A DNA stretch of 64,000 nt from Oscillospiraceae bacterium (GTDB lineage: Bacteria > Bacillota > Clostridia > Oscillospirales > Ruminococcaceae). Numbering within the stretch: the first letter of the stretch is position 1; each line of letters begins with the position of its first letter. Below, piece after piece: positions 2,461 to 61,544 of this stretch. The stretch is taken from contig WRMK01000002.1 in assembly GCA_009777155.1 (NCBI GenBank), positions 213 through 64,212 of the forward strand, in the 5' to 3' direction. Made by a program: the position numbers and the translations under genes. The notes beneath the pieces are model-generated. The model saw only the letters and a list, made by a program, of their open reading frames with translations, searched no databases and had not been told where the DNA came from.

Positions 2461-2558
2461 TTGAAAACCCCGCGCCAAGTTTCCGTGGGATTGCACCCGC
2501 GAAAAAACTTGTAGAGTTGTAAACTATTCAATCATAAAACCGTCGCGAAGCGACTCCA

Positions 2559-2594
2559 CAATTGTCCATTATCAATTGTCCATTATCAATTGTC
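2559..2594 (-). repeat. heptanucleotide array overlapping the uxuB-like stop codon
   Basis: Sense strand reads GACAAT TGATAAT GGACAAT TGATAAT GGACAAT; it encodes the last residues QLIMDN and the stop. Confidence 0.8.
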
Positions 2595-4404
2595 GCAAGA
2601 CACTCCTCACCGCCCCCGGCTCCAAAGTCATCTCCTCAAACACATCGACAACCTTCTCCGCCAAACCCGCCTCGTACAAATTCACGCCGAAGATTTTTTC
2701 GTCCTCCAACAGCGGGCGAATCCGCTCGCGCCAATGCGGGTTGTTGGGCGGCTCGGGCAGAATTATGGCTTCTGCGGTGGTCTCATTTTCGCAATCTTCG
2801 GAAGTATCGAGGTCATCTAAATCAATCGAATCATCGCGAGTTTCGGGCGTATTTACACCCGCACTTGTCGCCGAAATATCCGCGTTATCACCTGCTCCGC
2901 CGTCTTGTGAAACGCCGTCTTCGCCAATTTCCTCGGGCGGCGGCGCGGGGTGAAACTTGACATGCTTCAAGAACGAATTAAGGTGTAGGTAAAGCGGGTC
3001 GGGACTGAGTTCCATAAAGCCGCCGTTGTCGTCCAGCCCCAGCAAATACCTCAACCAACCCGACAAAACGAGCGGTATCGCCACCAATTTTTCGGGGTCT
3101 AAATCGGGTCGGGCGATATAGGTTTTCAGGGTCTCGCCAAAGCGAATCGCAAGCTTTTGCGATGTATCCGTGGCGATTCTCTGGGGCGAATCGGGCAGGA
3201 ACGGGTTCGGCAGCCGCACGTTAATCACCTCGTCCAAGAAGTCGCGCGGGCTGATAATCCCGGGGTCGGTCACAGCGGGCAGACCCTCCTCGTAGCCCAA
3301 TTTCTCCACAAGCCGCCGCAAATCCGGGTCGTTCATTTCCTCACTGATTTTGTTGTACCCAAGCAAGCATCCAAACACGGCAAGCGCGGTGTGAAGCGGG
3401 TTTAGGCAGGTGCAGACCTTCATTCTCTCGGCTTTTTCAACCGTCTCGCGGTCGGTGAAAATAATGTTTGCATTTTTCAATGTATCGAGCGGCGGGCGGC
3501 CGTTCGGGAAATTATTTTCGATAATCAGATACTCGGCTTGCTCGGCGTTGACGAAGGCGGCGGCGCAAGAATTTTTCGAGGTGACAATCGGCGCCATGCC
3601 CAAAATCCCGCCGCTCTCGAGCATTCTGCGGATTTCTTTGTGTGGGGCGGGGGTAATTTTGTCAATCATGCTCCACGGAAACGAGACTTTTTCGCTTTGG
3701 ATATATTTCACAAAGCCTTTCTTGACCAATCCCGCCGCTTCCCACGTTTCGGCAAAGGTCAAGATTGCACTTTTCAGCTTATCGCCGTTGTGGGAGCAGT
3801 TGTCCATGCTGACAAGCGCAATAGGTTTACACCCATTTGCGTATCGCTCGTGCAACAGCGCGGTGATTCTGCCCATGTAACTTCTCGGGGTTGACACCCC
3901 GTTTTCAAAATCATGCAGAATATCGGGCGGCGTTTCACGCGCAGGGCTTTGAAGCGAGTACCCTTTTTCGGTAATCGTAAAACTCGCCATTTGCAGTGAC
4001 GGGGCGCGGAAAATTTCTTTGAGCCGTGTGAAATCCTCGTACTTCGTCCCCGCCTTCAACGCCTCGGTAATCGAGGCCACAGCGCGTTTCTCGACCGTGC
4101 CGTCGCTTTTCAAAGTAACCAAGATGAACAGGTTATCGTACGGCGTGAACGCCATGTCGATAATCTCGTAATCGTAGCCCTCGGCGGCAATCACGCCCTT
4201 GTCGTAGCCGCCCGAGACAAGCTCCTGACACGCCCGCGCCAAGTAGGCACGGAAGATATTCCCCGCCCCGAAGTGAATCCAAGTAGGCGCGGTTTTTGTC
4301 GCTTCAATCAGTGTAAACCTATCGTAGTTTACAGGCTCAACCCCCGCGGCAAGCCACTTTTCTCTGTTTAGGGTCGAGAGTAGGGTTTGGTTGTTTAGGT
4401 GCAT
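2572..4404 (-). CDS. uxuB: mannitol dehydrogenase family oxidoreductase (fructuronate/tagaturonate reductase-like)
   Basis: WIHFGAGNIFRAY Rossmann start and ITEKGY motif; lies with uxuA/uxaC/eda; carries a 72-aa acidic insertion near the C-terminus. Confidence 0.75.
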   Translation of the reverse strand: MHLNNQTLLSTLNREKWLAAGVEPVNYDRFTLIEATKTAPTWIHFGAGNIFRAYLARACQELVSGGYDKGVIAAEGYDYEIIDMAFTPYDNLFILVTLKSDGTVEKRAVASITEALKAGTKYEDFTRLKEIFRAPSLQMASFTITEKGYSLQSPARETPPDILHDFENGVSTPRSYMGRITALLHERYANGCKPIALVSMDNCSHNGDKLKSAILTFAETWEAAGLVKKGFVKYIQSEKVSFPWSMIDKITPAPHKEIRRMLESGGILGMAPIVTSKNSCAAAFVNAEQAEYLIIENNFPNGRPPLDTLKNANIIFTDRETVEKAERMKVCTCLNPLHTALAVFGCLLGYNKISEEMNDPDLRRLVEKLGYEEGLPAVTDPGIISPRDFLDEVINVRLPNPFLPDSPQRIATDTSQKLAIRFGETLKTYIARPDLDPEKLVAIPLVLSGWLRYLLGLDDNGGFMELSPDPLYLHLNSFLKHVKFHPAPPPEEIGEDGVSQDGGAGDNADISATSAGVNTPETRDDSIDLDDLDTSEDCENETTAEAIILPEPPNNPHWRERIRPLLEDEKIFGVNLYEAGLAEKVVDVFEEMTLEPGAVRSVLRQLIMDN

Positions 4405-7413: not shown

Positions 7414-7453
7414 GTTTTCAGTTCCGTCCTTTCGGTCGTTGGTAAGGTTTGGT

Positions 7454-7716
7454 GTAGGGAACGGTTCTTAACCGTTCCGCAAAGTTTCAGCGGCTTTGTA
7501 ATCGTTCCGCAAAGTTTCAGCGAATTTATAAATTACGCGCAATTTCGCGCAGTTTCATCAACGGAACGGTTAAGAACCGTTCCCTACATTAAAATGCCAA
7601 TAAAAATTATTAACGGCAGGGAAATTTTTTCGGCGTAGGGGCGAACTGTGTTCGCCCGTGGATTTTTCGGCGGTTGTGCGGATTTGCGGACGCGCCATGG
7701 CGACCCCGTCCCTACA
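7454..7716. repeat. REP-like hairpin cluster
   Basis: GTAGGGAACGGTTCTTAACCGTTCCG and GTAGGGGCGAACTGTGTTCGCCCG, plus an inverted doublet with an AT-rich spacer. Confidence 0.85.
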
Positions 7717-7766
7717 CATAACACGCCCACCCCATACAACAAAGGCAAAAACCTTGCCCCCCGCAC

Positions 7767-7796
7767 CAATTGTCCATTGTCCACTATCAACTATTC
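7767..7796 (-). repeat. heptanucleotide array overlapping the uxaC stop codon
   Basis: Sense strand reads AAT AGT TGA TAG TGG ACA ATG GAC AAT TGG. Confidence 0.75.
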
Positions 7797-11333: not shown

Positions 11334-11862
11334 GTAGGGGCGAACTCCGTTCGCCCGCATGTCGCACACGCCCTGTTTGCGGACGACCGTGCGCGGTCGT
11401 CCGCATATGCGCGGCTCCGCCGCCCCGTCTGTTAAATTACCGCCTTGTTATGACGTTTTTTGTTGTTGAAAATGTTTGGTGTAGGGAACGGTTCGTAACC
11501 GTTCCGTATGTTTATGCGGGTTCGTAATCGTTCCGTATATTTATGCGGGTTCGTAATCGTTCCGTATATTTATGCGACTTCGTAACCGTTCCGTATATTT
11601 ATGCGGCTTCGTAACCATCCCGAAAATCCACACGATTTATAGGACGGAACGGTTACGAACCGTTCCCTACATAACACCGCGCCGTGTTTCGGGTAATTTT
11701 GCGGACGACCGAGGGCGGTCGTCCCTACGTTTGATAAAACCGTGCAAATTTGCGCCAATTTACAAAATCGCCGAAACATGCGGAACGGTTTAGAACCGTT
11801 CCCTACAATAAAATTTACGAACGGCAGAAAATACCCATGTAGGGGCGGGCATTGCCCGCCCG
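11334..11862. repeat. REP-like hairpin cluster
   Basis: Multiple GTAGGG-headed hairpins with different stems (GCGAAC.., AACGGTT.., ACGACCG.., GCGGGCA..). Confidence 0.85.
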
Positions 11863-11968: not shown

Positions 11969-11998
11969 CCAATTGTCCATTGTCAATTGTCAATTGAC
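11969..11998 (-). repeat. heptanucleotide array overlapping the GH43 stop codon
   Basis: Sense strand reads ATG TCA ATT GAC AAT TGA CAA TGG ACA ATT GG. Confidence 0.75.
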
Positions 11999-13383
11999 AT
12001 CCCCCCAAACCCCAACGAATTCATCCCCCAACTCTCCCCACCACAATAAACAAAATACAGGGCGTGAACGCCGTCCGGGATTGCTATGTCGCCCGAAAAC
12101 TCAGTCCACTGATTAGCACTGTCAATCTTAATACTCCCCAAAGTTTCGCCGGTCGGTGAAAGCCGCACGTCGAACGCGCCATGCCCGTAGCCGCGCGTTT
12201 TTACGGTGATTTTTTGCACGCCCTTGCAGTCGAAATACTTAAAACCAATCACCGCGCCGTTGTGAATATTAGTCACGTAGCCAAGCTCCTCGTCGCCGTC
12301 CTTGCCGTCCTGGGTCAATTTCGGGTGCTTTTCGCAATCGTCCAAGTAGAACAAATTGCAGGCAATATACGCGGGATACTCGCCTTTTCCGAGCAGTGGT
12401 GCACCGTTCGCGCCCTGCGATGTAGCCTCGACTTGCGCGATACTGCCGTCAGTTTCAATCGCGATTTTTTCCACACAAGCTTGTCGCGAAAACGGCGTGC
12501 CATTAGTATGGCGGTGATAAAAAATATAATAATTTTCACCGATTTTTTCAATACCGCCGTGATTATTATTCACTACGTTCGCGGGTTTATCGGCGGGTTT
12601 GTATGTGTCAATCCCGAGGTCGGCACAGCTGATTATCACCCCGCCATAGACGAAATCTTTCGTGGGGTGCTTGCTCGTCGCGTAGGACAAATTGGTCATT
12701 TTCACCGACGAATAAACCAAATAATATGTATCGCCAAATTTCCTAATCGACGGTGCTTCAAAAATTTCATTGCCCTCAAAGCCCGTGCCCGCGCTGTGTG
12801 TATCGCTCGGAATCACAAACACCGGCGGCTCTTTCACGGTCAGCATATCCGCCTCAAGAACCGTCGCCATACAGCCACTGCGCGACTTGTCGCCATGCCC
12901 GCAAAAGCCGGTGTACAAATAGGTTACGTCCCCCTCGGTCAACACACCGGGGTCAAATTGCGGCTCGTCACCGTCAGCTTTGCCGAGCAATGTCCCATCG
13001 GGATACTTAACGTAACCATGAAACTTATACTTGCCCGCGGGTGTATCACAAACCGCGACCGACACCACGCAATCCCTATCCAAGACGTAATAGAGGTAAT
13101 ACCGCCCGTCCGACCCGCGGGTCACATCGGGGGCATACAGGCACATCTTGCCGTCCTTGTTGAGCGGGTCGGCGTTTCGCTCATAGATGACGCCCTCATA
13201 TTTCCAGTCGCTCAAGTCATCAACAGGCGCGGAGTAGCAGATATAATCGTTGATACAAAACACCCAGCCATTAAACATATCATGCGAGCCGTAAATGTAG
13301 ACCCTGTCGCCGAAAACGTGCGGTTCGCCGTCCGGGATATACTCCCACGAGGGCAGGAACGGATTGAAGCATTGGTTTTTCAT
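11983..13383 (-). CDS. glycoside hydrolase family 43 (beta-xylosidase/arabinofuranosidase-like) with a C-terminal CBM-like domain
   Basis: NPFLPSWEYIPDGEPHVFGDRVYIYGSHD and LYAPDV motifs typical of GH43. Confidence 0.8.
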   Translation of the reverse strand: MKNQCFNPFLPSWEYIPDGEPHVFGDRVYIYGSHDMFNGWVFCINDYICYSAPVDDLSDWKYEGVIYERNADPLNKDGKMCLYAPDVTRGSDGRYYLYYVLDRDCVVSVAVCDTPAGKYKFHGYVKYPDGTLLGKADGDEPQFDPGVLTEGDVTYLYTGFCGHGDKSRSGCMATVLEADMLTVKEPPVFVIPSDTHSAGTGFEGNEIFEAPSIRKFGDTYYLVYSSVKMTNLSYATSKHPTKDFVYGGVIISCADLGIDTYKPADKPANVVNNNHGGIEKIGENYYIFYHRHTNGTPFSRQACVEKIAIETDGSIAQVEATSQGANGAPLLGKGEYPAYIACNLFYLDDCEKHPKLTQDGKDGDEELGYVTNIHNGAVIGFKYFDCKGVQKITVKTRGYGHGAFDVRLSPTGETLGSIKIDSANQWTEFSGDIAIPDGVHALYFVYCGGESWGMNSLGFGGMSIDN

Positions 13384-13437: not shown

Positions 13438-13585
13438 GTAGGGGCGCGCATTGCGCGTCCGTAATTTCACGCAAACCGCGTCCGTAATTTTACGCAAACG
13501 CGGGGTCTTTACGGACGGGCAATGCCCGCCCGCAAATCTACACAAACGCGGGGTCTTTGCGGACGCGCAATGCGCGCCCCTACAG
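13438..13585. repeat. REP-like hairpin cluster
   Basis: GTAGGGGCGCGCATTGCGCGTCCG and CGGACGGGCAATGCCCGCCCG units. Confidence 0.85.
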
Positions 13586-14755: not shown

Positions 14756-15994
14756 TTAGTCCCGTTCTAATTCCCCATTTATTATTAAATCCATCATAGC
14801 GTTTTCAAAATCTTCGCTACTTCCATATGTAATCCCTCTAAAAGTAATGCTTGTTAAATCAGGGCAAACGAAAAAAGCACGAGGATGAATTTTGGTTACG
14901 CCATCGGGAATAACAACACTTGTTAATGCCGTACGTTCAAACGCATAAACGCCGATTTTGGTTAGACCGTCCCCGAATGTAACGCTTGTCAGTTCTCTAC
15001 ACTCCTCAAAAGCCGAGTTACCGATTTCGGTTACACTATCGGGGATTACAACGCTTGTTAATGCCGTTTTCTTAAACGCATTTTCGCCGATTTCGGTTAC
15101 ACTATTTGGGATTACAATGCTTGTTAATGCCGTAAAGCTAAACGCACCATCGCCGATGCAAGTTACACTATCGGGAATAATAACGCTTGTCAGATTTTCG
15201 CACCACATAAACGCATCCCTCCCGATTTCGGTTACACTATTTGGGATTACAATGCTTGTTAATGCCGTAAAGCTAAACGCGCCGATGTAAGTTACACTGT
15301 TTGGGATTACAATGCTTGTCAATCCGGTTCCGTCAAACGCACCATCGCCGATGTAAGTTACACTATCGGGGATTATAACACTTGTCAATTCTTTGCAACT
15401 TTCAAACGCGGAGTTGCCAATTGAGGTTATACTATTTGGGATTACAATGCTTGTCAATCCGCTTCTGGCAAACGCGCGGTAGCCGATTTCGGTTACACTG
15501 CCGGGAATGACAACGCTTGTTAATGGAGTATTCCAAAACGCATAATCGCCGATGTAAGTTACACTGTTTGGAATATAGACATAGGTTATTCCGCTGTCTT
15601 CGAAAGCTTTCCCGCCGATGACCGTCACAGGCTCGTCGTCGATTTTTTCGGGTATGCGGACTTCTTCTGCTGTTCCTATATATTTCAGTATTTCAATGCC
15701 GTTTAACTCCTCGTTATATTCGTATTCAAAGTCATAAACAGGCGTTTCGTCCATATCGGGCGGGGGGTTGTTTCCCTGTGGGGTGAGGTCGGGGGTGGGG
15801 TCTTTTGCATTGTTGCACGGTGTGTCGCCTGCATTGCTGCCCGATGTGTCGCTTACGCTGTTGGTCGGTGTGTCGTCTGCATTGTTGCCCGGTCTGTCGT
15901 TTGCAAGGGTGTCCGCGTTAGAACCATCGCCGTCGCAAGCCGCCAAGCTTGCAAGCATGATAATCGCCATAAGTAATGCTAAAATCTTCCTCAT
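14756..15994 (-). CDS. BspA-type leucine-rich-repeat lipoprotein
   Basis: Lipobox LASLAAC; more than 10 repeats of LTSVVIPxSVTxIGxxAF. Confidence 0.8.
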   Translation of the reverse strand: MRKILALLMAIIMLASLAACDGDGSNADTLANDRPGNNADDTPTNSVSDTSGSNAGDTPCNNAKDPTPDLTPQGNNPPPDMDETPVYDFEYEYNEELNGIEILKYIGTAEEVRIPEKIDDEPVTVIGGKAFEDSGITYVYIPNSVTYIGDYAFWNTPLTSVVIPGSVTEIGYRAFARSGLTSIVIPNSITSIGNSAFESCKELTSVIIPDSVTYIGDGAFDGTGLTSIVIPNSVTYIGAFSFTALTSIVIPNSVTEIGRDAFMWCENLTSVIIPDSVTCIGDGAFSFTALTSIVIPNSVTEIGENAFKKTALTSVVIPDSVTEIGNSAFEECRELTSVTFGDGLTKIGVYAFERTALTSVVIPDGVTKIHPRAFFVCPDLTSITFRGITYGSSEDFENAMMDLIINGELERD

Positions 15995-16154: not shown

Positions 16155-16267
16155 AACTATCCGACAACCTACAATGGTTGTCACATTGCCTAATATCAAT
16201 TGTCAACTACACAAACGTCCGACAACCTACAATGGTTGTCACACTATCCACTGTCAACTATCAACCG
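16155..16267 (-). repeat. heptad-type array plus two copies of the hairpin GACAACCtacaatGGTTGTC, overlapping the flotillin stop codon
   Basis: Sense strand reads GTT GAT AGT TGA CAG TGG ATA GTG TGA... Confidence 0.7.
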
Positions 16268-18199: not shown

Positions 18200-18289
18200 T
18201 AAATTCTGGCGTTTCTGCGGATTGGCGAACGCGGGCGTGCGTTTTTACATGCGCCGAACACACCCCTACCGCCCCCTGCGCCCCCACAA

Positions 18290-18380
18290 GTATCAGCAAA
18301 TTACCACCAAAAGTATCAGCAAATTACCACCAAAAGCATCAGCAAATTACCACCAAAAGTATCAGCAAATTATCACCCAA
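18290..18380. repeat. 23-nt tandem repeat, about 3.9 copies, overlapping the nfeD stop codon
   Basis: GTATCAGCAAATTACCACCAAAA repeated. Confidence 0.85.
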
Positions 18381-25847: not shown

Positions 25848-26288
25848 GTAGGGACGACCGCCCCCGGTCGTCCGCAAATACCCGAAACATGGCGCGGTGT
25901 TCTGTAGGGGCGCGCATTGCGCGTCCGCAAATACCCGAAACGCGGCGCGGTGTTCTGTAGGGGCGCGCATTGCGCGTCCGCAAATTCCCGAAACGCGGCG
26001 CGGTGTTGTGTAGGGAACGGTTCTTAACCGTTCCGCAAACTCGCACGACCTTATAAACGGAACGGTTAAGAACCGTTCCCCGCATTAAAATGCCAATAAA
26101 AATTTTCACGACAGGAAAAATATCATGTACGTAGGGGCGAACTGCGTTCGCCCGTGAATCCACACACCTGCCGAACCCCACACAAACGGTCGGGCATGGA
26201 AGCCCGACCCTACGTTGAAAAACCCCACAAACAACCGAAAACCCACGCAACCGCATAAACCCACGGGCGGGCAATGCCCGCCCCTACA
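25848..26288. repeat. REP-like hairpin cluster (includes three tandem 54-nt units)
   Basis: GTAGGGGCGCGCATTGCGCGTCCGCAAATACCCGAAACGCGGCGCGGTGTTCT repeated, plus other stem types. Confidence 0.85.
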
Positions 26289-28265: not shown

Positions 28266-28266
28266 C

Positions 28267-28455
28267 TAATGCAGAAATAAGAATGCAGAATGCAGAAATT
28301 ATTTCTAATGCAGAAATGAGAATGCAGAATGCAGAAATGAAATCACTTTGCAATTGACAATGATTTTATTTTGTGCTATAATTAAATAACGCAGAAATAA
28401 ATAAAATTACAACTACTTGAATACTTAATTATTTCTGCATTCTGCATTCTGCATT
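28267..28455. repeat. AATGCAG-armed hairpin cassette whose loop carries a consensus promoter
   Basis: Left arms (AATGCAG)n AAAT at 28267-28339; right arm ATTTCTGCATTCTGCATTCTGCATT at 28429-28455. Confidence 0.75.
28354..28382 (+). promoter_or_regulatory. perfect consensus promoter of the GH13-PurC gene
   Basis: TTGACA-17 nt-TGcTATAAT. Confidence 0.7.
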
Positions 28456-28478: not shown

Positions 28479-30623
28479 ATGTCCTACTGGTTTGAAAACG
28501 CTGTAATCTATCACATCTACCCGCTTGGCTACTGCGGTTGCCCCAAAGATAATCCTTACTTGGAAAAGCCGGGTAAACCCGCGGGCGAAAGTCCTATTCT
28601 GAAAGTCTTAGAGCATATCCCGACTATTAAGAAACTCGGATTCAACGCCCTCTACATAGGCCCGGTGTTTGAATCCACCCGCCACGGGTACGACACCGCC
28701 GACTTCTTGAAAATCGACTCGCGACTTGGCACAAACGCAGACTTCGCGCGTGTTTGCAAGGAGTTGCACAAGAACGGTATTCGGGTAATTCTCGATGCCG
28801 TGTTCAATCATGTCGGGCGGGATTTCTTCGCCTTCAAAGACCTGCGCCAAAATCGGGGCGGCGGCAAATACGCAGGCTGGTTCCACACTCGCGGCGGCAA
28901 TTCCAATTACAACGACGGCTTTTTTTACGAGGGTTGGGAGGGGCATTACGAGTTGGTAAAGCTGAATTTGCAGAACCCCGAGGTGAAAAACCACTTGAAA
29001 GAGGCGGTGACGACTTGGTACAAGGAATACGGCATTGACGGCTTGCGGCTTGACGTCGCATACAGCTTGGACTTGGGCTTTCTGCGGGAACTCCGTAGCC
29101 ACTGCAAAAGCTTAGAACCCGACTTTTGGCTGATGGGCGAGACTTTGCATGGCGATTACAACGTATGGATGAACCCCGAAATGTGCGACAGTGTCACAAA
29201 TTATCAGTGCTACAAGGGGCTGTATTCGAGCTTCAACGACCTCAATATGTTCGAGATTGCACATTCTTTCAACGACCACTTTATGAACAAATACAGGGGC
29301 AAAAAACTCTATTGTTTTGTGGATAATCACGATGTTGGGCGAATTGCGTCGGTCTTGAAGAACCCCGCGCATTTGTTGCCGCTGTATGCTTTAATGTTCA
29401 CCATGCCGGGCATACCGGGGGTTTATTATGGCAGCGAATACGGCTTCAAAGCCGCCAAGAGCCAAGGCGACGACGCCCTGCGCCCCGAATTTTCTTTGAA
29501 GACCGTCAAGGACACTGAACTCACCCGCGCAATTGCGAAATTGGCGCATGCTCATGCAGGCTTAAAGCCGCTTTGGGACGGCGATTATCGGCAAGTCGTG
29601 TTGAATAATCAGTACTTTGCTTTTGCACGTTCGGCGGGCGGCGAGACGGTCTACACGCTGATTAATGCGAGTGCGGCGCCTGTCGGGTTTAACTTGGGCG
29701 GCGCGGGGAATTATGCTGATGTGCTGACGGGAGAAGTGTTTAATATAAGTCGCGAGGTGAAAGTTGCGGCGTGTAGTGCTATGATACTGGCAGTCACTGA
29801 TGCGCCTGTGAAAGTTTCTGCGCCGATTCAAAAGGTAGCGAAAACTCCCGAACCTGCAAAAGTTTCTGCTCCTGTGCAAGAAGTACCGAAAACTCCCGCG
29901 CCCGCAAAAGTTTCCGAACCCGCGAAAACCGCGCCTGTTCTGATTGCGCGCGGTAAGACCAAGGACGTATTCGACCTCGGCGACGGAACTTTCCTGTTCA
30001 AGTTCAAGGACAACGCCACGGTCAACGACGATGGGCAATTCGACCCGGGCGGTAACACCGTGGGCCTTACAATCGGCGGCTTGGGCGAGGCGAATTTGAA
30101 GCTTACCAAGCACCTTTTCGAGAAAATCAACGCCGCCGGATACCCCACTCACTTTGTCAGCGCGAATCTCGAGAAAGCCGAGATGACCGTTCGCCCCGCT
30201 GTGGTGTTCGGCAAGGACGGCAAGGGCTTGGAGGCCGTCTGCCGTTTCCGCGCAACCGGCAGTTTCATTCGGCGTTACGGGCAGTATGCCAAGGAGGGCG
30301 ATGCGCTGAACGGCTTGGTGGAAATTACCCTGAAAGACGACCAACGCGGCGACCCGCCGATTACCCAAGACACCCTCGTGACACTCGGCATTTTAACCAA
30401 TGACGAGTACCGAATTTTGTCGGAACTCACAAAGGGTATTTCGCACTTGTTGAAATTTATCTTCGCCGAAAAGGGCTTGGATTTGTATGATTTGAAGTTG
30501 GAATTTGGCAAGGTTGACGGTAAAATCGTGCTGATTGACGAGATTGCGGGCGGCAGTATGCGGGTCTACAGGGACGGCAAGGGGCTGACGCCGTTTGAGC
30601 TTACGGAAATAATTACACGATAA
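28479..30623 (+). CDS. GH13 alpha-amylase-family enzyme fused via a Pro/Ala/Lys linker to a SAICAR-synthetase (PurC)-like domain
   Basis: GH13 regions DAVFNHVG, GLRLDVA, MGETLH and VDNHD. C-terminal GKTKDVF...FKFKDNAT...PTHFV...GSFIRRYG...LKDDQRGDP...KLEFG...LIDEI matches the PurC layout. Confidence 0.8.
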   Translation: MSYWFENAVIYHIYPLGYCGCPKDNPYLEKPGKPAGESPILKVLEHIPTIKKLGFNALYIGPVFESTRHGYDTADFLKIDSRLGTNADFARVCKELHKNGIRVILDAVFNHVGRDFFAFKDLRQNRGGGKYAGWFHTRGGNSNYNDGFFYEGWEGHYELVKLNLQNPEVKNHLKEAVTTWYKEYGIDGLRLDVAYSLDLGFLRELRSHCKSLEPDFWLMGETLHGDYNVWMNPEMCDSVTNYQCYKGLYSSFNDLNMFEIAHSFNDHFMNKYRGKKLYCFVDNHDVGRIASVLKNPAHLLPLYALMFTMPGIPGVYYGSEYGFKAAKSQGDDALRPEFSLKTVKDTELTRAIAKLAHAHAGLKPLWDGDYRQVVLNNQYFAFARSAGGETVYTLINASAAPVGFNLGGAGNYADVLTGEVFNISREVKVAACSAMILAVTDAPVKVSAPIQKVAKTPEPAKVSAPVQEVPKTPAPAKVSEPAKTAPVLIARGKTKDVFDLGDGTFLFKFKDNATVNDDGQFDPGGNTVGLTIGGLGEANLKLTKHLFEKINAAGYPTHFVSANLEKAEMTVRPAVVFGKDGKGLEAVCRFRATGSFIRRYGQYAKEGDALNGLVEITLKDDQRGDPPITQDTLVTLGILTNDEYRILSELTKGISHLLKFIFAEKGLDLYDLKLEFGKVDGKIVLIDEIAGGSMRVYRDGKGLTPFELTEIITR

Positions 30624-30740
30624 TGCAGAAATAAAAATGCAGAATGCAGAAATGTCTTTAATTATAGGCGGTGCGCCGTGCGAGACCCGCTTAAAAATTA
30701 AATTATTTCTGCATTCTGCATTTTGCATTTTTATTTACTT
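30621..30740. repeat. AATGCAG-armed hairpin element
   Basis: aatgcagaatgcagaaat...atttctgcattctgcat arms around a loop of about 50 nt. Confidence 0.8.
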
Positions 30741-30859: not shown

Positions 30860-30945
30860 GGTTTCACCTCCTTTCGGTTAATGTAGAAATGATAATGCAG
30901 AATGCAGAAATGGCGTGGGGTTTGCGGTTGTGGGGAATTTTTGTT

Positions 30946-31740
30946 GTAGGGGCGCGCATTGCGCGTCCGTGATTTTACGCAGAACGTGGGGGTTGCGGTT
31001 GATGTTGTTTTGTCTGTAGGGGCGCGCATTGCGCGTCCGTGGTTTTATGCGCCGTGTATTTTCCTGTTGTGAAAATTTTTTGTTGTAGGGAACGGTTCTT
31101 AACCGTTCCGATGATGAAACCGTGTAAAATTTCGCAAAATATAAATCCGCGCAAACCTACGCAAATTACAGGCTTGCGGAAACTTGGCGGAACGGTTAAG
31201 AACCGTTCCCTACATAACACCGCGCTGTGTTTCGGGGGGTGCGGCGTTTCCGTGGGATTTACGGGCGAACGCAGTTCGCCCCTACGTTCATGACGTTTTT
31301 TATGTGGTTGAAAATTTTTATTGTAGGGAACGGTTCGTAACCGTTCCGAAAGTTTCAACGACCCCATAAACGGAACGGTTATGAACCGTTCCCTACATAA
31401 CACCGCGCTGTGTTTCGGGGGGCTTGCGGCGTTTCCGTGGGATTTGTGGGCGTGTGGATTGCATGTTTGTGTGGGTTTGCGGTCGTGTGGATTGCGCGTT
31501 TGTGTGGATTTGCGGGCGTGTGGGATTTGCGGGCGAACGCAGTTCGCCCCTACATTCATGACGTTTTTTATGTGGTTGAAAATTTTTGCAGTGCGGACGC
31601 GCAATGCGCGCCCCTACAATAGGTGGGATTTGCGGCGTTTCCGTGGGATTTTGCGAACGACCGGGGGCGGTCGCCCCTACAATCGGTGGGTTTTGCGGCG
31701 TTTCCGTGGGATTTACGGACGCGCAATGCGCGCCCCTACA
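30946..31740. repeat. largest REP-like hairpin cluster (about 15 units)
   Basis: GTAGGG-headed hairpins with GCGCGCA, AACGGTT, GCGAAC and ACGACCG stems in both orientations. Confidence 0.9.
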
Positions 31741-32602: not shown

Positions 32603-32735
32603 TTTTTACCTCCGATTTTTATAATGCAGAATGCAGAATGCAAAATGCAGAAATAATTTAATTTTCAGGTGGTTTTCCAACGGATATGTACGTAATATTT
32701 TTATTTATTTCTGCATTCTGCATTATTATTTCTGC
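32603..32735. repeat. AATGCAG-armed hairpin element (55-nt conserved loop)
   Basis: Near-identical to 33455-33590. Confidence 0.85.
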
Positions 32736-33454
32736 ATTCTTTTGCGTATTTCATTGACATTCCAATTCATCAAATGCCGCACCATGTACCTGAAACAAAA
32801 CTGCTTAAACCGCCCGCCTTTTTGCCTATGCGCCGAAAAGAGCTCGTCGGGGGTGTCGTAGATGCCGAGGTCTTGTATAATGCCCTCGTTTTGAATGTAG
32901 GTGCTGTTTTCGTTCCATTCGATAGTCGGGTTCTTGAAATCGGCGGTCGCTACGCCGTACCCGCAGAACGCGCCTTCGCAGGCCTTGAATTTATTCTGCA
33001 ACGCCCCGAGATAGGCCTTGTCCAAAATAAATCCTTCCAGGTTCAGCCACTCGCCGTTGTAGTTGATTTCAACCCATGAGTGCAGAATTTCCCGCGGTGA
33101 CAAGGCGTAATAAAACCCTTTCATTGCGCCCTTTTGCAGGGTTTTGTCGATGTAAAACCCATGTATTCGGCACTCGACACCAACAGCACGCAGCAGTGCC
33201 ATAAACAGCGTGCCTTTGGTGTTGCACTGGCCGTAATTGTCCGCAAGCACGCTCGACGCCGCGATATTATCGCTTATGTTGTACCCGAAAATTATTTCAT
33301 CGCGGACATAGTTATATATGCCGAGGATTTTTTCCTTGTCGGTTTGATTGCGCCAATCGCGCTCTGTGACTAAGTTTTGTATGGCGGGGTGGTTGTAATT
33401 CAGCATGGTGGTTGGGGATAGTAGGGGGGTGTGTGGCATGTTTTGTTCCTCCAT
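32726..33454 (-). CDS. transglutaminase-like (Cys-His-Asp) domain protein
   Basis: GQCNTKGTLFMALLRAVGV...HSWVE...LEGFILD. Confidence 0.75.
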   Translation of the reverse strand: MEEQNMPHTPLLSPTTMLNYNHPAIQNLVTERDWRNQTDKEKILGIYNYVRDEIIFGYNISDNIAASSVLADNYGQCNTKGTLFMALLRAVGVECRIHGFYIDKTLQKGAMKGFYYALSPREILHSWVEINYNGEWLNLEGFILDKAYLGALQNKFKACEGAFCGYGVATADFKNPTIEWNENSTYIQNEGIIQDLGIYDTPDELFSAHRQKGGRFKQFCFRYMVRHLMNWNVNEIRKRMQK

Positions 33455-33590
33455 TTTTTAATGCAGAATGCAGAATGCAAAATGCAGAAATAATTTAATT
33501 TTCAGGTGGTTTTCCAACGGATTTGTACATAATATTTCAATTTATTTCTGCATTCTGCATTCTGCATTCTGCATTTCTTTTTGGTTTTCA
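33455..33590. repeat. AATGCAG-armed hairpin element (55-nt conserved loop)
   Basis: (AATGCAG)n AAATAATTTAATTTTCAGGTGGTTTTCCAACGG...TTATTTCTGCATTCTGCATT. Confidence 0.85.
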
Positions 33591-34144: not shown

Positions 34145-34227
34145 GGCGCTGTGTCGGAATGGCAGACGAGGTAGACTCAAAATCTTCTGTAGGTAACTAC
34201 GTGTGGGTTCAAGTCCCACCAGCGCCA
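34145..34227 (+). tRNA. tRNA-Leu (anticodon CAA), class II with a long variable arm
   Basis: 7-bp acceptor GGCGCTG/CAGCGCC, anticodon loop CTCAAAA, T-arm GTGGGTTCAAGTCCCAC; CCA not encoded. Confidence 0.9.
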
Positions 34228-40900: not shown

Positions 40901-41231
40901 TGAAGATTCCGAAGAATACGAGTTGTCCATCTTGTTTGAATGGAACGACACCAAAGACCCCGGAGAACTGCTCCTCATGCGGGTTAACGCTTACGTTTCA
41001 CTCGAAGATGAAACAGGGAATTGGATAGTGCAACCGGGCGTAAACCCCGGGCTTGACTGGAGCGAATTAAAGGCGATACTGAAATCCAACGGCGGCAAAT
41101 TCTACAGCACGTTCAGCGAGCCCGTCCCGACCGGCCTTGCCGACATGCGCGGCTTCACCGTAATCGCAATCACGCTAATCGCAGTCTCGGCGGGGCTGTT
41201 CATAAGCACTCGCCGCAGGCGAGTTAAATGA
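37917..41231 (+). CDS. 1104-aa secreted, highly acidic, aromatic- and Cys-rich cell-wall-anchored orphan protein
   Basis: Signal peptide MKKRLISLLTAFAVILSL; four N-terminal repeats of about 95 aa (W-x-W-D/E-N); CxC/CxxC-rich module; C-terminal PVPTG + TM + RRRRVK sorting signal. Confidence 0.8.
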   Translation: MKKRLISLLTAFAVILSLGGMPAIHAQSGDAYWRDYFPDTFGEADFTYGSEDYITWRWDNIDLVDDIIDFLLSEGYAEHSDRFSDGSNQTEEYTEVTKYPIIPDYDISFSIDYYDGDGNWRMAVCYYDAEYAEWFKYFTDTVGKAPDDFTFNSEGNHRWEWNNVDFRTQLHSFFLSDGLTKLTENTLTYDNVYPQKTIVTKDNDEFRLTYQVGDQDGTTVYTYIYGEGGENYWRYYFSPVADNDPSPFIYTNEDDIRWAWDNANYVAEIAWFLSMQGYYLVGKDFYETGGTDVYTDVFKDGDTFKIYYNNGNGYEDIYIYEYGRAAEWKGYFLSATYSAPDFFVYVDENNICWEWEDKNWVSDLGTFLQLQGYRQIDFGSNPFGSSYEVTQVDKYYDTFRITYHPGNDTREWFTFGWYCQPCLGGDHEDCVIDGCWCGCGGGGGGDDICDACYFGQHAWCSLYEGTSCACGCFICQPCRDEEHEVCEFKLYEARCDCWCNDNPVYFRPPYLRSGMDYYLLDIKQLLDDDDDVFKIYGVGLTLLATDIDSFDGSFKFMGLDDKDDVTFELEIDFDDCDVTALEEGMYQIEYTQDERIFSLEDWCYRRDLIINCDSGSFMVLAVWFLDEDGDFIGSPLFVEDPCGGNGGSTCLCDGIMSSFMETFATLSGDFVDLGYALYTLDFIFGYYLDWAVYMADYLFEEYAEAIVDLFGEDCIFYDPCLDLINCVQCKYLVLYFMYDDIGELSLFDYFVLMEGIAVPLFEAIEGVNAGYACEFCERFPCMCQGLMNALGAIISDVTSEPVPLVSLWGNLGSLTWLLGQWIFIPDYMTYAYGLEIATLIGGCEWDYDDVEQKMVVINNPCDPHTCIACDYYAVVDEISVWEPVPSIGWAWVLEMNADAYAKLQEFVLEPILNAIDNVNANFDDDNFSLDFIRGSFEYFISEEMFMSNFYDINPAEIEAAFTVLHEAVDSEWAVKHSEFYTDYGANNFISLIVAFEDSEEYELSILFEWNDTKDPGELLLMRVNAYVSLEDETGNWIVQPGVNPGLDWSELKAILKSNGGKFYSTFSEPVPTGLADMRGFTVIAITLIAVSAGLFISTRRRRVK

Positions 41232-41280
41232 GAATGCAGAATGCAAAATGCAGAAATAAGCGGCATACAAAGTTTATTTC

Positions 41281-41487
41281 CGACGGAGTTCGCCCCGCAC
41301 GCACAAATCCCACGGGCGGAATTCGCCCCGCACGCACAAATCCCACGGGCGAACGCAGTTCGCCCCTACAACATTAAAAATTATTAACGACATAAAAATT
41401 TTTTCAGCGTAGGGGCGGGTCACCACGGTTCGCCCGCAAGGCCCGCAAGACTTGGGCAGACGGACGCGCAATGCGCGCCCCTACATA
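41281..41487. repeat. REP-like hairpin cluster / inverted doublet
   Basis: cgggcgaacgcagttcgcccctaca - AT-rich spacer - gtaggggcg...; block repeated at 42470-42582. Confidence 0.85.
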
Positions 41488-41506
41488 GGGTTTCATGGAC
41501 TTAGTG

Positions 41507-41792
41507 GGGGCGGTGGGTCGGCATGGGGCAGGGGGTCTGTGTCTGCTCTACCTCAAAGAGCCACCAGCCCGCCACACAAGCTGTTCAGACTCCACTTTCT
41601 CGACATGAAACTTATCTCCTCACGACTTAATAAGTTTCATCTACATAAAAAGTCTGCACTCGCAAATGGGTATCTGCTACGTGATAACGGTTCGGCTCGA
41701 GAAGGTTAGACTTTATCAAGCGCAAAAGCGGGCGTGTGGCTCTTTGCGGTAGAGCAGACACAGACCCCCTGCCCCCTGCCGACCCACCGCCC
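41507..41792. mobile_element. long-arm hairpin element, copy A (about 286 nt)
   Basis: Self-complementary arms of about 60 nt around a core shared with copies at 49941-50275 and 52714-53034. Confidence 0.7.
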
Positions 41793-42691: not shown

Positions 42692-42740
42692 CATTATTCA
42701 CTATTCACTATTCACTATTCACTATTCATTATTCACTCAC
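42692..42740 (-). repeat. heptanucleotide array (7 units) overlapping the stop codon of the glucan-synthase-like gene
   Basis: Sense strand reads GGT GAG TGA ATA ATG AAT AGT GAA TAG TGA ATA GTG... Confidence 0.8.
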
Positions 42741-49905: not shown

Positions 49906-49940
49906 AGCAAGTCTCCTTGAGCAATATTATCTTATGAACC

Positions 49941-50275
49941 CACTACATACAGCAAAATTTTTGCAAATGTGAAGTGGCAGTCGGGGCAGAGGGGGGTAGT
50001 AGGGGTCTATGTCTGCGCCGCCGCTTTGAAACGCACGCCCGCCGCACAAACCGTTCAATCCCCGCAACATCGACAGCGAGTTTTCCCCTTGGCGACCTAT
50101 GGGTTCGCTATACATTAAAAGTCCGCCCCCATAAGGGGTTCTTCCATCTACAAAGTCTTTGGCACGAGAGAGTTAAGTTTTAGCAAGTGTAAACGCGGGT
50201 TCGTGCAGTTTCAAAGCGGCGGCGCAGACATAGACCCCTACTACCCCCCTCTGCCCCCCCCTCAAGTCCATGAAG
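49941..50275. mobile_element. long-arm hairpin element, copy B (outer flanks inverted relative to the core)
   Basis: See findings. Confidence 0.7.
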
Positions 50276-51918: not shown

Positions 51919-52680
51919 ATGAGAAAATTTACAACGATTATCACCCTCTGCCTCGTGCTGACCTTGGCGGCGTGTGGGTTTGAACCCACAGGCGTCGTTT
52001 CGGAGGGTGGCGAGACCCTGCCGCTCCCCGAACCTCGTGACGTCTCGGACGCTCCCGAAACTCCCGATGAACCCATTGAACCCGACGAACCCATTGAACC
52101 CAACGAACCCGATGAACCCACTGAACCCGCAACCACAGGTGCAGTCGCAATCGCAACATACGAGCGCGGTATCCTAACCGACACATCCTTTGAAAGCGAC
52201 TACCTCGGGCTTAGATTCACCCTGCCCCCCGGATTCGTAATGGCGACACCGGAGGAAATCCTCGACATGATGGATTTGGGCGCGGCCGCCTTCGATTTAG
52301 ACCAAGATATAGTGGATTACGCGGCACTCACAGCGACTTACGACATGGTGGCGTTCAGCCCCGCCGGCTTCCCGAACGTCATTGTCCTAACCGAGCTTAT
52401 GCCGATTAGCGACATAACGGTAGAGCAGTATTTTGACAACGTCAAGGTTATGTTTGCATCAACCGGCCCGGATTTCCGGTTTGGCGACTTAGGAACGATA
52501 GAAGTCGCAGGCGAGACCTACACAAAACTCCCCGCAAGCCTTGAAATGCTCGGCGAAACGGTTTTGCAGGATTATATCATGAGGAAACATGGCGACAGAA
52601 TGGTCGGATTCATACTTTCATACACAGACGAGACCGCAGACGAAGCCGAATTATTAATGGCGGCGTTTGAGAAATATTAA
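51919..52680 (+). CDS. lipoprotein with a PExP-rich linker, inserted between atpI and atpB
   Basis: Lipobox LTLAAC; (PDEPIE)n low-complexity linker. Confidence 0.7.
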   Translation: MRKFTTIITLCLVLTLAACGFEPTGVVSEGGETLPLPEPRDVSDAPETPDEPIEPDEPIEPNEPDEPTEPATTGAVAIATYERGILTDTSFESDYLGLRFTLPPGFVMATPEEILDMMDLGAAAFDLDQDIVDYAALTATYDMVAFSPAGFPNVIVLTELMPISDITVEQYFDNVKVMFASTGPDFRFGDLGTIEVAGETYTKLPASLEMLGETVLQDYIMRKHGDRMVGFILSYTDETADEAELLMAAFEKY

Positions 52681-52713
52681 CAATAGACGATTGCGAAACT
52701 CGCCGTTTAGAGG

Positions 52714-53034
52714 TCATGGACTTGAGTGGGGGCAGAGGGGGGTAGTAGGGGTACGGCGGCACAAGGAATTGCCGGCCCGCCACACAAACTCATCTAATTC
52801 CACTTCCTCGATTGCGACCTTACAAGTTCACGACTTGACAAGTTTCATCTATTTGAAAAGTCTGCACTCGCAAATAGGCTCGTGCTACGTGATAACGGTT
52901 CGGCTCGAGAAGGTTAAGCTCTATCAAGCGTAGAACGCGGGCGTGCGATTCCTTGTGCCGCCGTACCCCTACTACCCCCCTCTGCCCCGACTGCCACCTC
53001 ACATTTGCAAAAATTTTGCGGTATGTAGTGAGTT
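52714..53034. mobile_element. long-arm hairpin element, copy C
   Basis: Arms ggggcagaggggggtagtaggggtacggcggcacaagg / ccttgtgccgccgtacccctactacccccctctgcccc; core about 90% identical to copy A. Confidence 0.7.
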
Positions 53035-53081
53035 TCGCAATCTCTTAAAATATTAAAAATTAAAGGAGGATTCCTATTCGC

Positions 53082-53804
53082 ATGTATAATTTTACAATAA
53101 TCGCGGCGGCTGAAAAAGCCCCGTTCGACATGAGCCTGCCGTACATAGCAACCTCCTTTGAGCTTTTCGGCATAACCTTCAACCTCACCTCGTCCGTAGT
53201 CACACAGTGGATTGTCATGGTCTTTTTAGGCATACTGTTCTTTGTCTTAGGGCGCAATCTCAAGGTAAAACCGACCGGCAAAAGGCAGATGATTGCCGAG
53301 GCGATTGTCACCTTTTTCAGAGACATGGTAATAGACGGCATGGGCGAAAAATACGTAGCCTACACGCCCTACATTGCGACCGTTCTGATTTCGTCGCTGA
53401 GTTTCAGCTTGTCGGGGCTTTTCGGGTATCGCCCGCCGACCGCGGACATAATGGTGCTCGGCTCGTGGGGGATTATCACCTTTATTTTGACACAGCGCAA
53501 CAAGTTCAAGACCGGCGGCGTGAAAGGCTTTTTCAAAAGCTTCATCGACCCTACTCCGGTAATGCTCCCGATGAACCTTGTCGGCGAGTTGACGAATCCC
53601 TTGTCACAAGTCTTCCGTCACTTCGGGAATATCTTAGGCGGCATGCTGATTATGGGCATTGTCTACTGGGCTTTGGGAAGTTTCGCGGTAGTAGTCCCCG
53701 CAGTGCTGTCGCTCTATTTCGACCTGTTCTCCGCGACGATACAGGCGTATATCTTCGCAATGCTGACGATGGTTTATGTGTCGAGCGCGGACTGCAGTGA
53801 GTAG
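53082..53804 (+). CDS. atpB: F0F1 ATP synthase subunit a
   Basis: Conserved Arg region LSQVFRHFGNILGG. Confidence 0.9.
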   Translation: MYNFTIIAAAEKAPFDMSLPYIATSFELFGITFNLTSSVVTQWIVMVFLGILFFVLGRNLKVKPTGKRQMIAEAIVTFFRDMVIDGMGEKYVAYTPYIATVLISSLSFSLSGLFGYRPPTADIMVLGSWGIITFILTQRNKFKTGGVKGFFKSFIDPTPVMLPMNLVGELTNPLSQVFRHFGNILGGMLIMGIVYWALGSFAVVVPAVLSLYFDLFSATIQAYIFAMLTMVYVSSADCSE

Positions 53805-53826
53805 TGGGTAGTGGGTAGTGGATAGC
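53796..53826 (+). repeat. heptanucleotide array overlapping the atpB stop codon
   Basis: AGT GAG TAG TGG GTA GTG GGT AGT GGA TAG C. Confidence 0.75.
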
Positions 53827-60762: not shown

Positions 60763-60846
60763 CGGACGGGCAATGCCCGCCCCTACAATATGTAGATGGA
60801 CGGCAAAACCAAATCGCCATATGTAGGGGCGCGCATTGCGCGTCCG
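60763..60846. repeat. REP-like hairpins
   Basis: cggacgggcaatgcccgcccctaca; gtaggggcgcgcattgcgcgtccg. Confidence 0.85.
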
Positions 60847-61035: not shown

Positions 61036-61437
61036 ATGACCACTTTCAATCTCGAAATAATAACCCCCCACGGTCTATTCTTCCAAGGCGAGACCGAGGG
61101 CGTAGTCGTCCGTACTACAGTCGGCGACAAGGGCATTTTAGCCCGCCACGAGAACTACGCCGCCGCTCTCGGTACGGGGAAAATCCGCGTAATGCAGGAC
61201 GGCGAATACCGCACTGCGGCTTTGTCGTCGGGCATCGTAAAGGTAGACCGCGAGAAGACTTTAATTTTGGCGCAAAGCTGTGAATGGGGCGACGAGATTA
61301 ACATCGAACGCGCCGAAAAAGCCCGCAAAGCCGCCGAAGACCGCCTATCGGACAGCGCGCTCGGCGCGAACGAGCACGCAATCGCGGAGTTTAAGCTTAA
61401 ACGCGCCTTGAACCGCCTTGAGACGGCGGGGAGATGA
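61036..61437 (+). CDS. atpC: F0F1 ATP synthase subunit epsilon
   Basis: 133 aa; beta-sandwich plus helical hairpin layout; last gene of the operon. Confidence 0.9.
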   Translation: MTTFNLEIITPHGLFFQGETEGVVVRTTVGDKGILARHENYAAALGTGKIRVMQDGEYRTAALSSGIVKVDREKTLILAQSCEWGDEINIERAEKARKAAEDRLSDSALGANEHAIAEFKLKRALNRLETAGR

Positions 61438-61511
61438 TAGTGGGCAGTGGATAGTGGATAGTGGATAGTTGACAATGGGCAATTGGCAGTTGATAATGGA
61501 CAGTAAATAGT
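61435..61511 (+). repeat. heptanucleotide array (11 units) starting on the atpC stop codon
   Basis: TGATAGT GGGCAGT GGATAGT GGATAGT GGATAGT TGACAAT GGGCAAT TGGCAGT TGATAAT GGACAGT AAATAGT. Confidence 0.85.
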
Positions 61512-61512
61512 T

Positions 61513-61544
61513 ACGGACGACCGGGGGCGGTCGTCCGTTTTTTG
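61513..61544 (+). terminator. REP-type hairpin acting as the atp operon terminator
   Basis: acggacgaccg gggg cggtcgtccgt followed by ttttttg. Confidence 0.75.

Follow-up and report, generated by a model that had tools for sequence, protein, structure and literature searches.

Tandem arrays of seven-nucleotide units lie on the stop codons of seven unrelated genes in a stretch of DNA from an Oscillospiraceae bacterium (GenBank assembly GCA_009777155.1, contig WRMK01000002.1, positions 213 to 64,212 of the forward strand). The whole stretch of 64,000 nucleotides, nearly all of a 64.6-kb contig, is called the window here. Heptanucleotide repeats have been known in bacteria since 1990, and to our knowledge neither their function nor the mechanism behind them has been established. 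The STRR repeats of cyanobacteria, reportedly described by Mazel et al. in 1990, are composed of the units CCCCAGT, TTGGTCA and CAACAGT. In those parts of the literature that treat them, the function of STRR is given as unknown, and effects on transcript stability or translational coupling are only suggested. Like STRR, the arrays of the window are tandem heptanucleotides at many intergenic sites, with several unit families in one genome; inverted copies of STRR can pair into hairpins. Two of the reported STRR units end in CAGT, comparable to the YART core (Y, C or T; R, A or G) of the window units. In the strict sense, however, STRR have a heterocystous-cyanobacterial host and other units, and the window differs from them in both. 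No statement that STRR are anchored on stop codons was found in the literature. Further heptamer families occur in Geobacter metallireducens.

Rehm et al. (2015) described G-rich heptamers, GGGAATC in Xanthomonas and GGGGA(C/T)T in Nostoc, which are mostly intergenic and accompany many unrelated genes (PMC4692102). These repeats lie on average 28 nt from the 5' open reading frame (ORF) and 160 nt from the downstream ORF, whatever the orientation of the ORFs. Those downstream of genes are on the coding strand, 0-50 bp from the stop or overlapping it, and those upstream of genes are on the non-coding strand. Their length and sequence differ between close relatives, and no function was found (PMC4692102). 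The arrays of the window resemble them in their tandem 7-nt units, their nearness to the 5' ORF and their position on the coding strand at or over the stop (8/8 arrays in the window, and 49/68 elsewhere among the matches listed). In contrast, the Rehm units have tracts of three to four G, form G-quadruplexes in vitro and show a preferred size of four units (PMC4692102), and most window units lack such tracts. Most window units (TGACAAT, TGATAAT, GGATAGT, GAATAGT) are, by their composition, predicted to be unable to form quadruplexes. The window units carry stop triplets, whereas the Rehm units carry none, and two Xanthomonas species have mostly retained the Rehm repeats between the same genes, whereas the window arrays are missing from the relatives examined.

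Another described family is that of the TAACTGA direct repeats of Beggiatoaceae, Cyanobacteria and Bacteroidetes (MacGregor 2015, PMC4679880). In forward orientation these repeats give stops in all three frames, and some sets overlap an upstream stop codon. Insertions or deletions of 7 nt separate strains, and close relatives have shorter, repeat-free intergenic regions. Ideas about a binding protein for TAACTGA are speculative only (PMC4679880). Rotated, TAACTGA reads TGATAAC and matches the window unit TGATAAT at 6 of 7 positions, though no TGATAAC unit occurs in the window. In the BOGUAY genome TAACTGA lies in forward orientation a few nucleotides 5' of the start codon, whereas the window arrays lie on the upstream stop, and the host phylum differs.

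The window arrays thus have the features of the known class of heptanucleotide tandem repeats: 7-nt units, a dispersed family, copy-number steps of 7 nt and a patchy occurrence among lineages. The original prediction, made from the letters of the window, had held that no described element has these properties; this does not stand, because the class is known in bacteria, its placement at stops has been published (PMC4692102) and TAACTGA is similar (PMC4679880). Heptamers of these particular units in Clostridia, or any established function or mechanism for them, were not found in the full-text literature, a coverage that leaves most subscription journals outside.

An array was defined as at least three consecutive 7-nt units, each matching the consensus KGRYART (K, G or T) at 6 or more of its 7 positions. 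In the window 8 such arrays were observed against 0.23 expected, spread over 7 loci and 7 unrelated genes, and all 8 are sense-oriented, on or just 3' of the stop codon of their own gene. A periodicity scan returned 10 strong period-7 runs, compared with 0-2 for the other periods from 4 to 12 and 0 in shuffles; together with Tandem Repeats Finder it gave 7 as the sole period of these head-to-tail units. The arrays and the hairpins directly linked to them are as follows.

61435-61511, plus strand: atpC array of 11 units (TGATAGT GGGCAGT GGATAGT x3 TGACAAT GGGCAAT TGGCAGT TGATAAT GGACAGT AAATAGT); the stop TGA at 61435-61437 is the first triplet of the array.
61513-61544, plus strand: atpC terminator, a REP-like hairpin GGACGACC-N6-GGTCGTCC with a T-run, directly 3' of the array.
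53799-53826, plus strand: atpB array of 4 units (GAGTAGT GGGTAGT GGGTAGT GGATAGC); stop TAG at 53802-53804.
42693-42734, minus strand: GH94 array of 6 units (GAATAAT GAATAGT x4 GAATAAT); stop TGA at 42733-42735, ending the gene of a 2390-aa protein.
16243-16263, minus strand: proximal array of 3 units of a Band-7/flotillin-like gene; stop TGA at 16254-16256, array-encoded tail ...VDS.
16185-16212, minus strand: second array of 4 units in the same 3' region, between two hairpin copies.
11972-11999, minus strand: GH43 array of 4 units; stop TGA at 11983-11985, array-encoded tail ...SIDN.
7769-7796, minus strand: UxaC array of 4 units; stop TGA at 7787-7789, array-encoded tail LNS.
2561-2595, minus strand: mannitol-dehydrogenase-family array of 5 units; stop TGA at 2572-2574, array-encoded tail RQLIMDN.
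2542-2554, minus strand: small hairpin GTCGCTTCGCGAC with a T-run, 3' of the mannitol-dehydrogenase-family array.

The gene identities at these loci are backed by Pfam. The coding content of the window includes SpoIIE and SpoIID, and the closest homologues are from Oscillospiraceae. The atpB array sits inside the atp operon, and the intrinsic terminator after the atpC array has an 11-pair stem followed by UUUUUU, with a convergent gene beyond. All arrays of the original prediction are present, at or within 3 nt of the positions given there, and its account of their sense orientation, of their overlap with the stop codons of seven unrelated genes (8/8 arrays, 7/7 loci) and of the array-encoded tails ...SIDN, ...QLIMDN and ...VDS was borne out. 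Array size, put there at 4-11 units, is in fact 3-11. At the flotillin-like gene, for which one array had been drawn over 16155-16267 under the name floT, the repeats are real, but they form the two separate arrays listed above (16243-16263 and 16185-16212), each followed on its 3' side by one copy of the hairpin GACAACC-ATTGTA-GGTTGTC.

The position of the arrays is far from random. The combination of sense orientation and location on a stop codon covers about 1.25% of the position-orientation pairs of the window, and its occurrence at 7/7 loci gives P ~5e-14. From the start of the array to the first in-frame stop, the distances at the seven loci are 21, 7, 14, 7, -1, 3 and 0 nt. The next gene begins 63 to about 990 nt beyond the end of the array and is convergent in three cases; the arrays are therefore pressed on the upstream gene and not on the downstream one. 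In a looser scan (two units, one mismatch allowed) 29 matches were found, 26 within the 8 arrays and 3 outside. Since 2.55 outside matches are expected by chance, the 64 kb contains no array in antisense orientation and none that is remote from a stop codon. Replication direction was rejected as the source of orientation in the window, where arrays on both strands track the direction of the local genes, and the two strands intermingle along the 64 kb.

The relatives examined have no arrays. Five metagenome homologues of atpC (61-79% identity) end with a plain TAA, have a terminator within about 10-25 nt and carry no array, and no period-7 array was found in the approximately 52 kb of these five loci. 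Nor do arrays occur in the compact 21-kb locus (L127) around the closest relative of UxaC, at 72% identity; UxaC has no relative above this value, and its named matches are metagenome-assembled genomes (MAGs) of Oscillospiraceae. The array-free relatives, with proteins 61-79% identical, together make up about 73 kb. A conserved regulatory element of the atp or uronate genes was rejected, as the homologous loci are without arrays. In the closest relative there are 4-nt overlaps among uxaC, uxuA and the mannitol-dehydrogenase gene, that of uxaC and uxuA being at 11368-11371 of L127; the uxaC-uxuA spacer of the window measures 373 nt (7414-7786). The intergenic regions of this genome are swollen by repeats.

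The gene ends themselves have been overwritten. AtpC equals its relatives in length, and its array begins exactly at the stop. UxaC ends in ...YF-LNS, compared with YF and one to three further residues in ten homologues (alignment of 11 UxaC proteins), GH43 in ...GFGGMSIDN versus ...EFGAFKLE in its ortholog, and mannitol dehydrogenase in ...VLRQLIMDN versus ...TLQKYLGE. In all four proteins similarity to relatives ceases where the array begins. The overlap comprises the last 0-6 codons and the change in protein length is 0 to +2 residues; thus, the native stop and as many as six codons before it have given way to the arrays. In the orthologues, the sequence at the gene end is TAA-AAG, TAA-AAA, TAG-GCT or TGA-AAA. 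Birth of the arrays from a pre-existing array-like stop context is unsupported, as the orthologous ends are not array-like and the C-terminal residues differ where the array begins; judging by the relatives, the ancestral ends did not resemble an array, and duplicating the stop context locally does not account for the origin.

Array length changes very rapidly. Only one other contig in public assemblies (L001) encodes an identical AtpC. Over 11,184 aligned nt it has 0 mismatches to the window, and the sole difference is one 7-nt gap, in which the atpC array of L001 is one GGATAGT unit shorter; the atpB array is the same in both. The unit number therefore changes far faster than point substitution proceeds, and the arrays are hypermutable in length. 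An assembly artefact was rejected, given that the arrays occur in two independent assemblies. Phase-variation (contingency) simple sequence repeats do not describe them either, for the unit change at atpC lies 3' of the stop and the protein is unchanged. The genes that bear the arrays are housekeeping and sugar-catabolism genes.

The 41 units of the window are strongly patterned. Position 5 is A and position 4 is C or T in all 41, position 7 is T in 40, and positions 3 and 6 are purines in 40. At position 2, G is found in 31 units and A in 9, and at position 1, G in 24 and T in 14. Unit variation consists almost entirely of transitions around a fixed YART core. GGG occurs only in the units GGGCAGT, GGGTAGT and GGGCAAT, and 33/41 units have at most two adjacent G. 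In RNA, UAG is repeated every 7 nt at 5/7 loci: the atpC, atpB and GH94 arrays have at least three UAG spaced by 4 nt, and the UxaC and flotillin arrays have two each. The GH43 and mannitol-dehydrogenase arrays have only CAA or UAA cores and no UAG.

These units do not form a structured RNA. On both strands the array RNA folds no better than shuffles (z = +0.4 to +0.7, and -1.7 for the short mannitol-dehydrogenase array), and no inverted partner of the KGRYART arrays exists in the window, as had been predicted. A hairpin or structured-RNA identity is ruled out by this shuffle-level folding. A known RNA family is also ruled out: an Rfam scan of the whole window gave no family matching the arrays, and the sole match was a tRNA. 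REP/BIME palindromes are similar to the arrays in that they are dispersed repeats gathering just 3' of stops, in 3' untranslated regions (UTRs). REPs, however, are imperfect palindromes that fold into hairpins, whereas the KGRYART arrays are unstructured direct repeats.

A second heptamer family of the window, AATGCAG, does have inverted arms able to fold. Its arms begin on or beside the stops of genes ending at 28265, 30623, 32726, 33588 and 41231, and at 4/5 of these sites an inverted (TTCTGCA)n arm follows 60-100 nt further on, with a conserved core between (...CCGTTGGAAAACCACCTGAAAATTAAATTA...). These array-loop-inverted-array units are dispersed hairpin elements that fill whole intergenic regions. 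The AATGCAG sites are as follows.

28266-28455, plus strand: element with an arm from the stop of a GT2 gene, a loop, and an inverted (TTCTGCA)n arm just 5' of the ribosome-binding site (RBS) of the next gene.
30624-30731, plus strand: hairpin element; the stop TAA at 30621-30623 of an amylase/SAICAR ORF overlaps its first unit.
32623-32740, minus strand: hairpin element that begins on the stop of a transglutaminase-like gene (32726-32728).
33460-33575, minus strand: hairpin element 3' of the stop (33588-33590) of a 142-aa ORF.
41227-41255, plus strand: solo AATGCAG-type array overlapping the stop TGA (41229-41231) of a 1158-aa ORF.
30894-30909: further site of the AATGCAG family.

AATGCAG contains no stop triplet in any frame. 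Placement at stop codons is thus not tied to units that carry stops.

Other genomes were scanned with the pattern ART plus four KGRYART units, using one genome per species, and at least 120 loci (840 kb) were obtained; all counts for other genomes in this text are among the matches listed, and counts by phylum from these loci are not frequencies. The matches belong to Cyanobacteria, Bacteroidota (many from rumen or gut), Planctomycetota, Acidobacteriota, Verrucomicrobiota, Chloroflexota and a few Proteobacteria, as well as to Oscillospiraceae and other Clostridia. In the 840 kb 281 arrays have period 7, compared with at most 19 for any other period, and 124 of these arrays consist of non-KGRYART units. 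An array was taken as stop-anchored when a sense ORF of 100 codons or more had its stop within -10 to +25 nt of the start of the array. This holds for 55/119 KGRYART arrays (46%), while the mirrored antisense geometry is found in 9/119 (7.6%) and random positions give 3.7%. When called genes were used, 49 of the 68 arrays with a same-strand upstream gene were anchored on its stop, and the median gap was 2.5 nt to that gene versus about 100 nt to the downstream gene. Sense stop anchoring is therefore general across the sampled genomes.

Beyond the window the strictly sense orientation gives way, although the excess at sense stops (46% versus 7.6% antisense) holds, since arrays antisense to a start also exist. 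Between co-directional genes the orientation of arrays is about even (60:50). The G-rich strand is the sense strand in stop-anchored arrays (71:19), and the C-rich strand is the sense strand in those that abut starts (25:15). Examples on the start side are (ATTACCA)n-ATG and (ATTGTCA)n followed after about 10 nt by GGAGG and ATG, several of the latter in Oscillospiraceae MAGs. Inverted pairs of KGRYART arrays have the G-arm first and the C-arm second in 51 cases and the reverse order in 6 (L002-L121), and their outer ends abut both flanking ORFs, in convergent, co-directional and divergent settings alike. One rule covers these cases: the G-rich strand has its 5' end against the neighbouring ORF, a polarity found across phyla. 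Stop triplets, as a general cause of anchoring, are unsupported outside KGRYART: in the non-KGRYART stop-anchored arrays, stops are on the sense strand in 8 and on the antisense strand in 8, on both strands in 14 and on neither in 9.

The reading that we favour, to which we give about an even chance, is that the arrays are a lineage-specific, slippage-prone family of dispersed heptanucleotide tandem repeats, of the same kind as STRR, TAACTGA and the G-rich heptamers of Xanthomonas and Nostoc. Replication slippage would shift array length in 7-nt steps, and, beside other repeat families, the arrays would have risen in number between the genes of this Oscillospiraceae-like genome. As in other heptamer arrays, the 5' end of the G-rich strand would come to be pressed on the neighbouring coding sequence. 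Where this neighbour is on the same strand, the array may replace the native stop and the last few dispensable codons, and the replacement would be harmless in that the unit (TGA-YAR-T and variants) brings its own stop triplets. Because 7 and 3 share no factor, stops come up in every frame within three units, and translation ends 0-7 codons from its natural end; three-frame stops on the sense strand, as first proposed, were confirmed. In the resulting RNA, the stop would be separated from the following hairpin or terminator by an unstructured stretch rich in G and poor in C.

In this scheme the stop triplets account for the harmless replacement of stops and not for the presence of the arrays, and the pattern can be explained without a function specific to stop codons. 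Arrays antisense at starts, and pairs of fixed architecture beside genes of any direction, make a DNA-level cause of the polarity more likely than one tied to the stop codon or the mRNA. This cause would more likely act on DNA, combined with purifying selection at the coding boundary, and the arrays would then be without a dedicated function. An insertion or overwriting process at gene ends is possible. Of the three explanations offered in the original prediction, a translational backstop, a platform for an RNA-binding protein and an insertion footprint, none gains support, in view of the absence from relatives, the one-unit difference between strains, the start-antisense arrays and the inverted pairs.

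Several observations weigh against the favoured reading. Local slippage alone cannot create the arrays, because one unit family occurs at seven loci and the orthologous ends are not array-like; a spreading mechanism or convergent selection is needed for this distribution. The constancy of YART looks like a constraint and would fit recognition by a protein. Polar deletion would predict a sharp 5' edge and a decaying 3' edge; a comparison of the array edges showed decay at both, with the first unit outside the 5' end slightly more array-like (4.9 versus 4.1 of 7). Finally, all 8 window arrays are sense and on stops, with none at a start, a stronger bias than that of the pan-bacterial sample. The single unit family at many gene ends, the constant YART and the window restricted to stops and sense are what keep the platform and insertion explanations alive.

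A functional platform in the 3' UTR, unlikely but the best placed of the alternatives, would consist of single-stranded RNA sites in a 7-nt register, bound by a multimeric or cooperative protein that modulates the adjacent terminator or mRNA stability. HutP of the Bacillus subtilis hut operon binds UAG-N4-UAG-N4-UAG, and the arrays are similar to its site in presenting UAG at a 7-nt period in single-stranded RNA next to a terminator in a Firmicute. A HutP-like hexamer, a cold-shock or S1-type OB-fold protein or an RRM protein could be the partner. Such a protein would suit the unstructured array RNA, the near-invariant YART amid variable positions, the UAG every 7 nt at 5/7 loci and the location of every array, in sense, within the transcribed stretch between stop and hairpin or terminator. 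MacGregor (2015) also cites evidence for CspB binding to heptamer repeats, one protein per heptamer, which points this way too (PMC4679880). The HutP site, however, is a single site in one operon and overlaps the terminator, whereas the window arrays are at seven unrelated genes, and the two loci with CAA or UAA only could not offer UAG at all. The same genes in relatives do without arrays, and otherwise identical strains differ in unit number. Elsewhere, Oscillospiraceae MAGs included, arrays lie antisense just 5' of an RBS and also after terminators, and the even orientation between co-directional genes does not suit a transcript-bound site. No gene for a candidate protein was identified in the window, where the small ORFs were not all scanned with Pfam.

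Somewhat more doubtful is a single mechanism, so far unrecognised, behind one cross-phylum rule (the 5' G-rich end abuts the ORF, and pairs always run from G-arm to C-arm). It could be an active process with polarity, at the DNA level, in which 7-nt repeats are written outward up to the edges of coding sequences, or a widespread nucleic-acid-binding protein with a 7-nt footprint at gene ends. If this were true, the Oscillospiraceae arrays, with their overwritten stops and strain-dependent length, would offer a recent case, still active, for catching the mechanism at work.

With less probability still, the arrays may be insertion footprints, that is, the ends or solo ends of small non-autonomous mobile elements with heptamer-site terminal inverted repeats, which insert or survive at gene boundaries. 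Insertion would explain how one unit family came to seven loci whose ancestral gene ends were not array-like. The dispersed array-loop-inverted-array units of the second window family, with their conserved core, and the fixed architecture of inverted pairs elsewhere (51:6) have the look of such elements, as have composites of array, small hairpin and inverted array in Oscillospiraceae MAGs, with GTCGCTTCGCGAC common to the window and L119. Against this, no transposase and no target-site duplication were seen, arm length ranges from 3 to >40 units, and unit content differs by locus. The KGRYART arrays of the window have neither a partner nor a common flanking sequence, and a transfer mechanism was found in neither of the two published studies (PMC4692102, PMC4679880).

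The two remaining readings are weak. A three-frame translational backstop, selected to halt readthrough or frameshifted ribosomes, is very improbable, even though every unit has TGA, TAG or TAA in sense, reaching all frames by the period of 7, with none in antisense, and KGRYART stop-anchored arrays elsewhere have the stop-bearing strand in sense by 45:6. AATGCAG in the window and GGGAATC in Xanthomonas (PMC4692102) have the same placement without a stop triplet, and, according to a survey, bacteria show no selection for extra stop codons as a fail-safe (PMC6764699). Three units would suffice for a backstop, yet there are 11 here and >40 elsewhere; relatives manage without arrays, and the non-KGRYART arrays at stops (8 versus 8, with 9 lacking a stop triplet on either strand) show no such preference. 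DNA-level promoter-like or protein-binding arrays that drive or insulate downstream transcription are scarcely credible: the repeat itself yields TTGACA-17 nt-GAYAAT, and a consensus scan puts sigma-70-like sites in the GH43, mannitol-dehydrogenase and distal flotillin arrays, but the downstream neighbour is on the same strand in 53 cases and the opposite in 69, the atpC array leads straight to a terminator and a convergent gene, the GGATAGT and GAATAGT arrays have no TTGACA, and the same arrays occur in Bacteroidota and Cyanobacteria, where promoters are known to differ.

For the class of dispersed heptanucleotide repeats, the window adds an example from Clostridia (Oscillospiraceae-like), with direct evidence of very fast 7-nt length change and of replaced stops and C-terminal codons. 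The cross-phylum counts extend a polarity published for two G-rich families to another unit family and many more lineages; should a single cause underlie this polarity, its discovery would account for a widespread trait of intergenic DNA in bacteria. The arrays also shift annotated stops and protein C-termini, and they are hot spots of assembly differences and strain-level variation. Several cultured carriers of KGRYART arrays, such as Pseudoflavonifractor sp. MSJ-30, Xylanibacter ruminicola KHT3 and Bacteroides stercorirosoris DSM 26884, are among the matches listed, which makes experiments possible.

Other repeats accompany the two heptamer families. The hairpin GTCGCTTCGCGAC also stands 3' of a heptamer array at about 953-965 of locus L119, which belongs to a water-deer MAG of Oscillospiraceae. 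Comparable short GC hairpins come after the arrays of further MAGs from this family, some with an inverted array further on (L026, L087, L093). The palindrome GGACGACC-N6-GGTCGTCC is present in 9 copies (22-nt sites) against 0.01 expected, and one copy forms the stem of the atpC terminator. Another GC-rich palindrome, GGRCGSGCAWTGCSCGYCC, is REP-like and has 19 intergenic copies, often with GTAG or CTAC before it. Longer tandem repeats were also detected (135 bp x1.9, 29 bp x4.4, 66 bp x8.3, 23 bp x4.1, 53 bp x2.8), together with a 9/18/27-bp coding repeat inside a 253-aa ORF. This lineage has been invaded by several intergenic repeat families. Their positions are as follows.

2118, 2298, 2433, 11381, 11703, 25852, 31655, 58947 and 61515: sites of GGACGACC-N6-GGTCGTCC.
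1416, 9390, 13442-13579, 25908-25979, 30950-31038, 53863 and 60764-60845: example sites of GGRCGSGCAWTGCSCGYCC.
2219-2475, 11490-11616, 15021-15565, 18284-18377, 25869-26015 and 52063-52128: longer tandem repeats, the coding repeat included.
34145-34227, plus strand: single tRNA gene, which alone matched Rfam.

Short dispersed copies, 87-96% identical, link 41620-41736 and 49937-50006 to 52810-53040; they overlap two similar small ORFs (41452-41709 and 52667-52933), which are possibly mobile-element fragments. The 714-aa ORF at 28479-30623 (plus strand) joins an alpha-amylase catalytic domain (residues 43-426) to a SAICAR synthetase (PurC) domain (489-699), and is either a fusion of an unusual kind or a pair of genes that became one ORF when a stop codon was lost.

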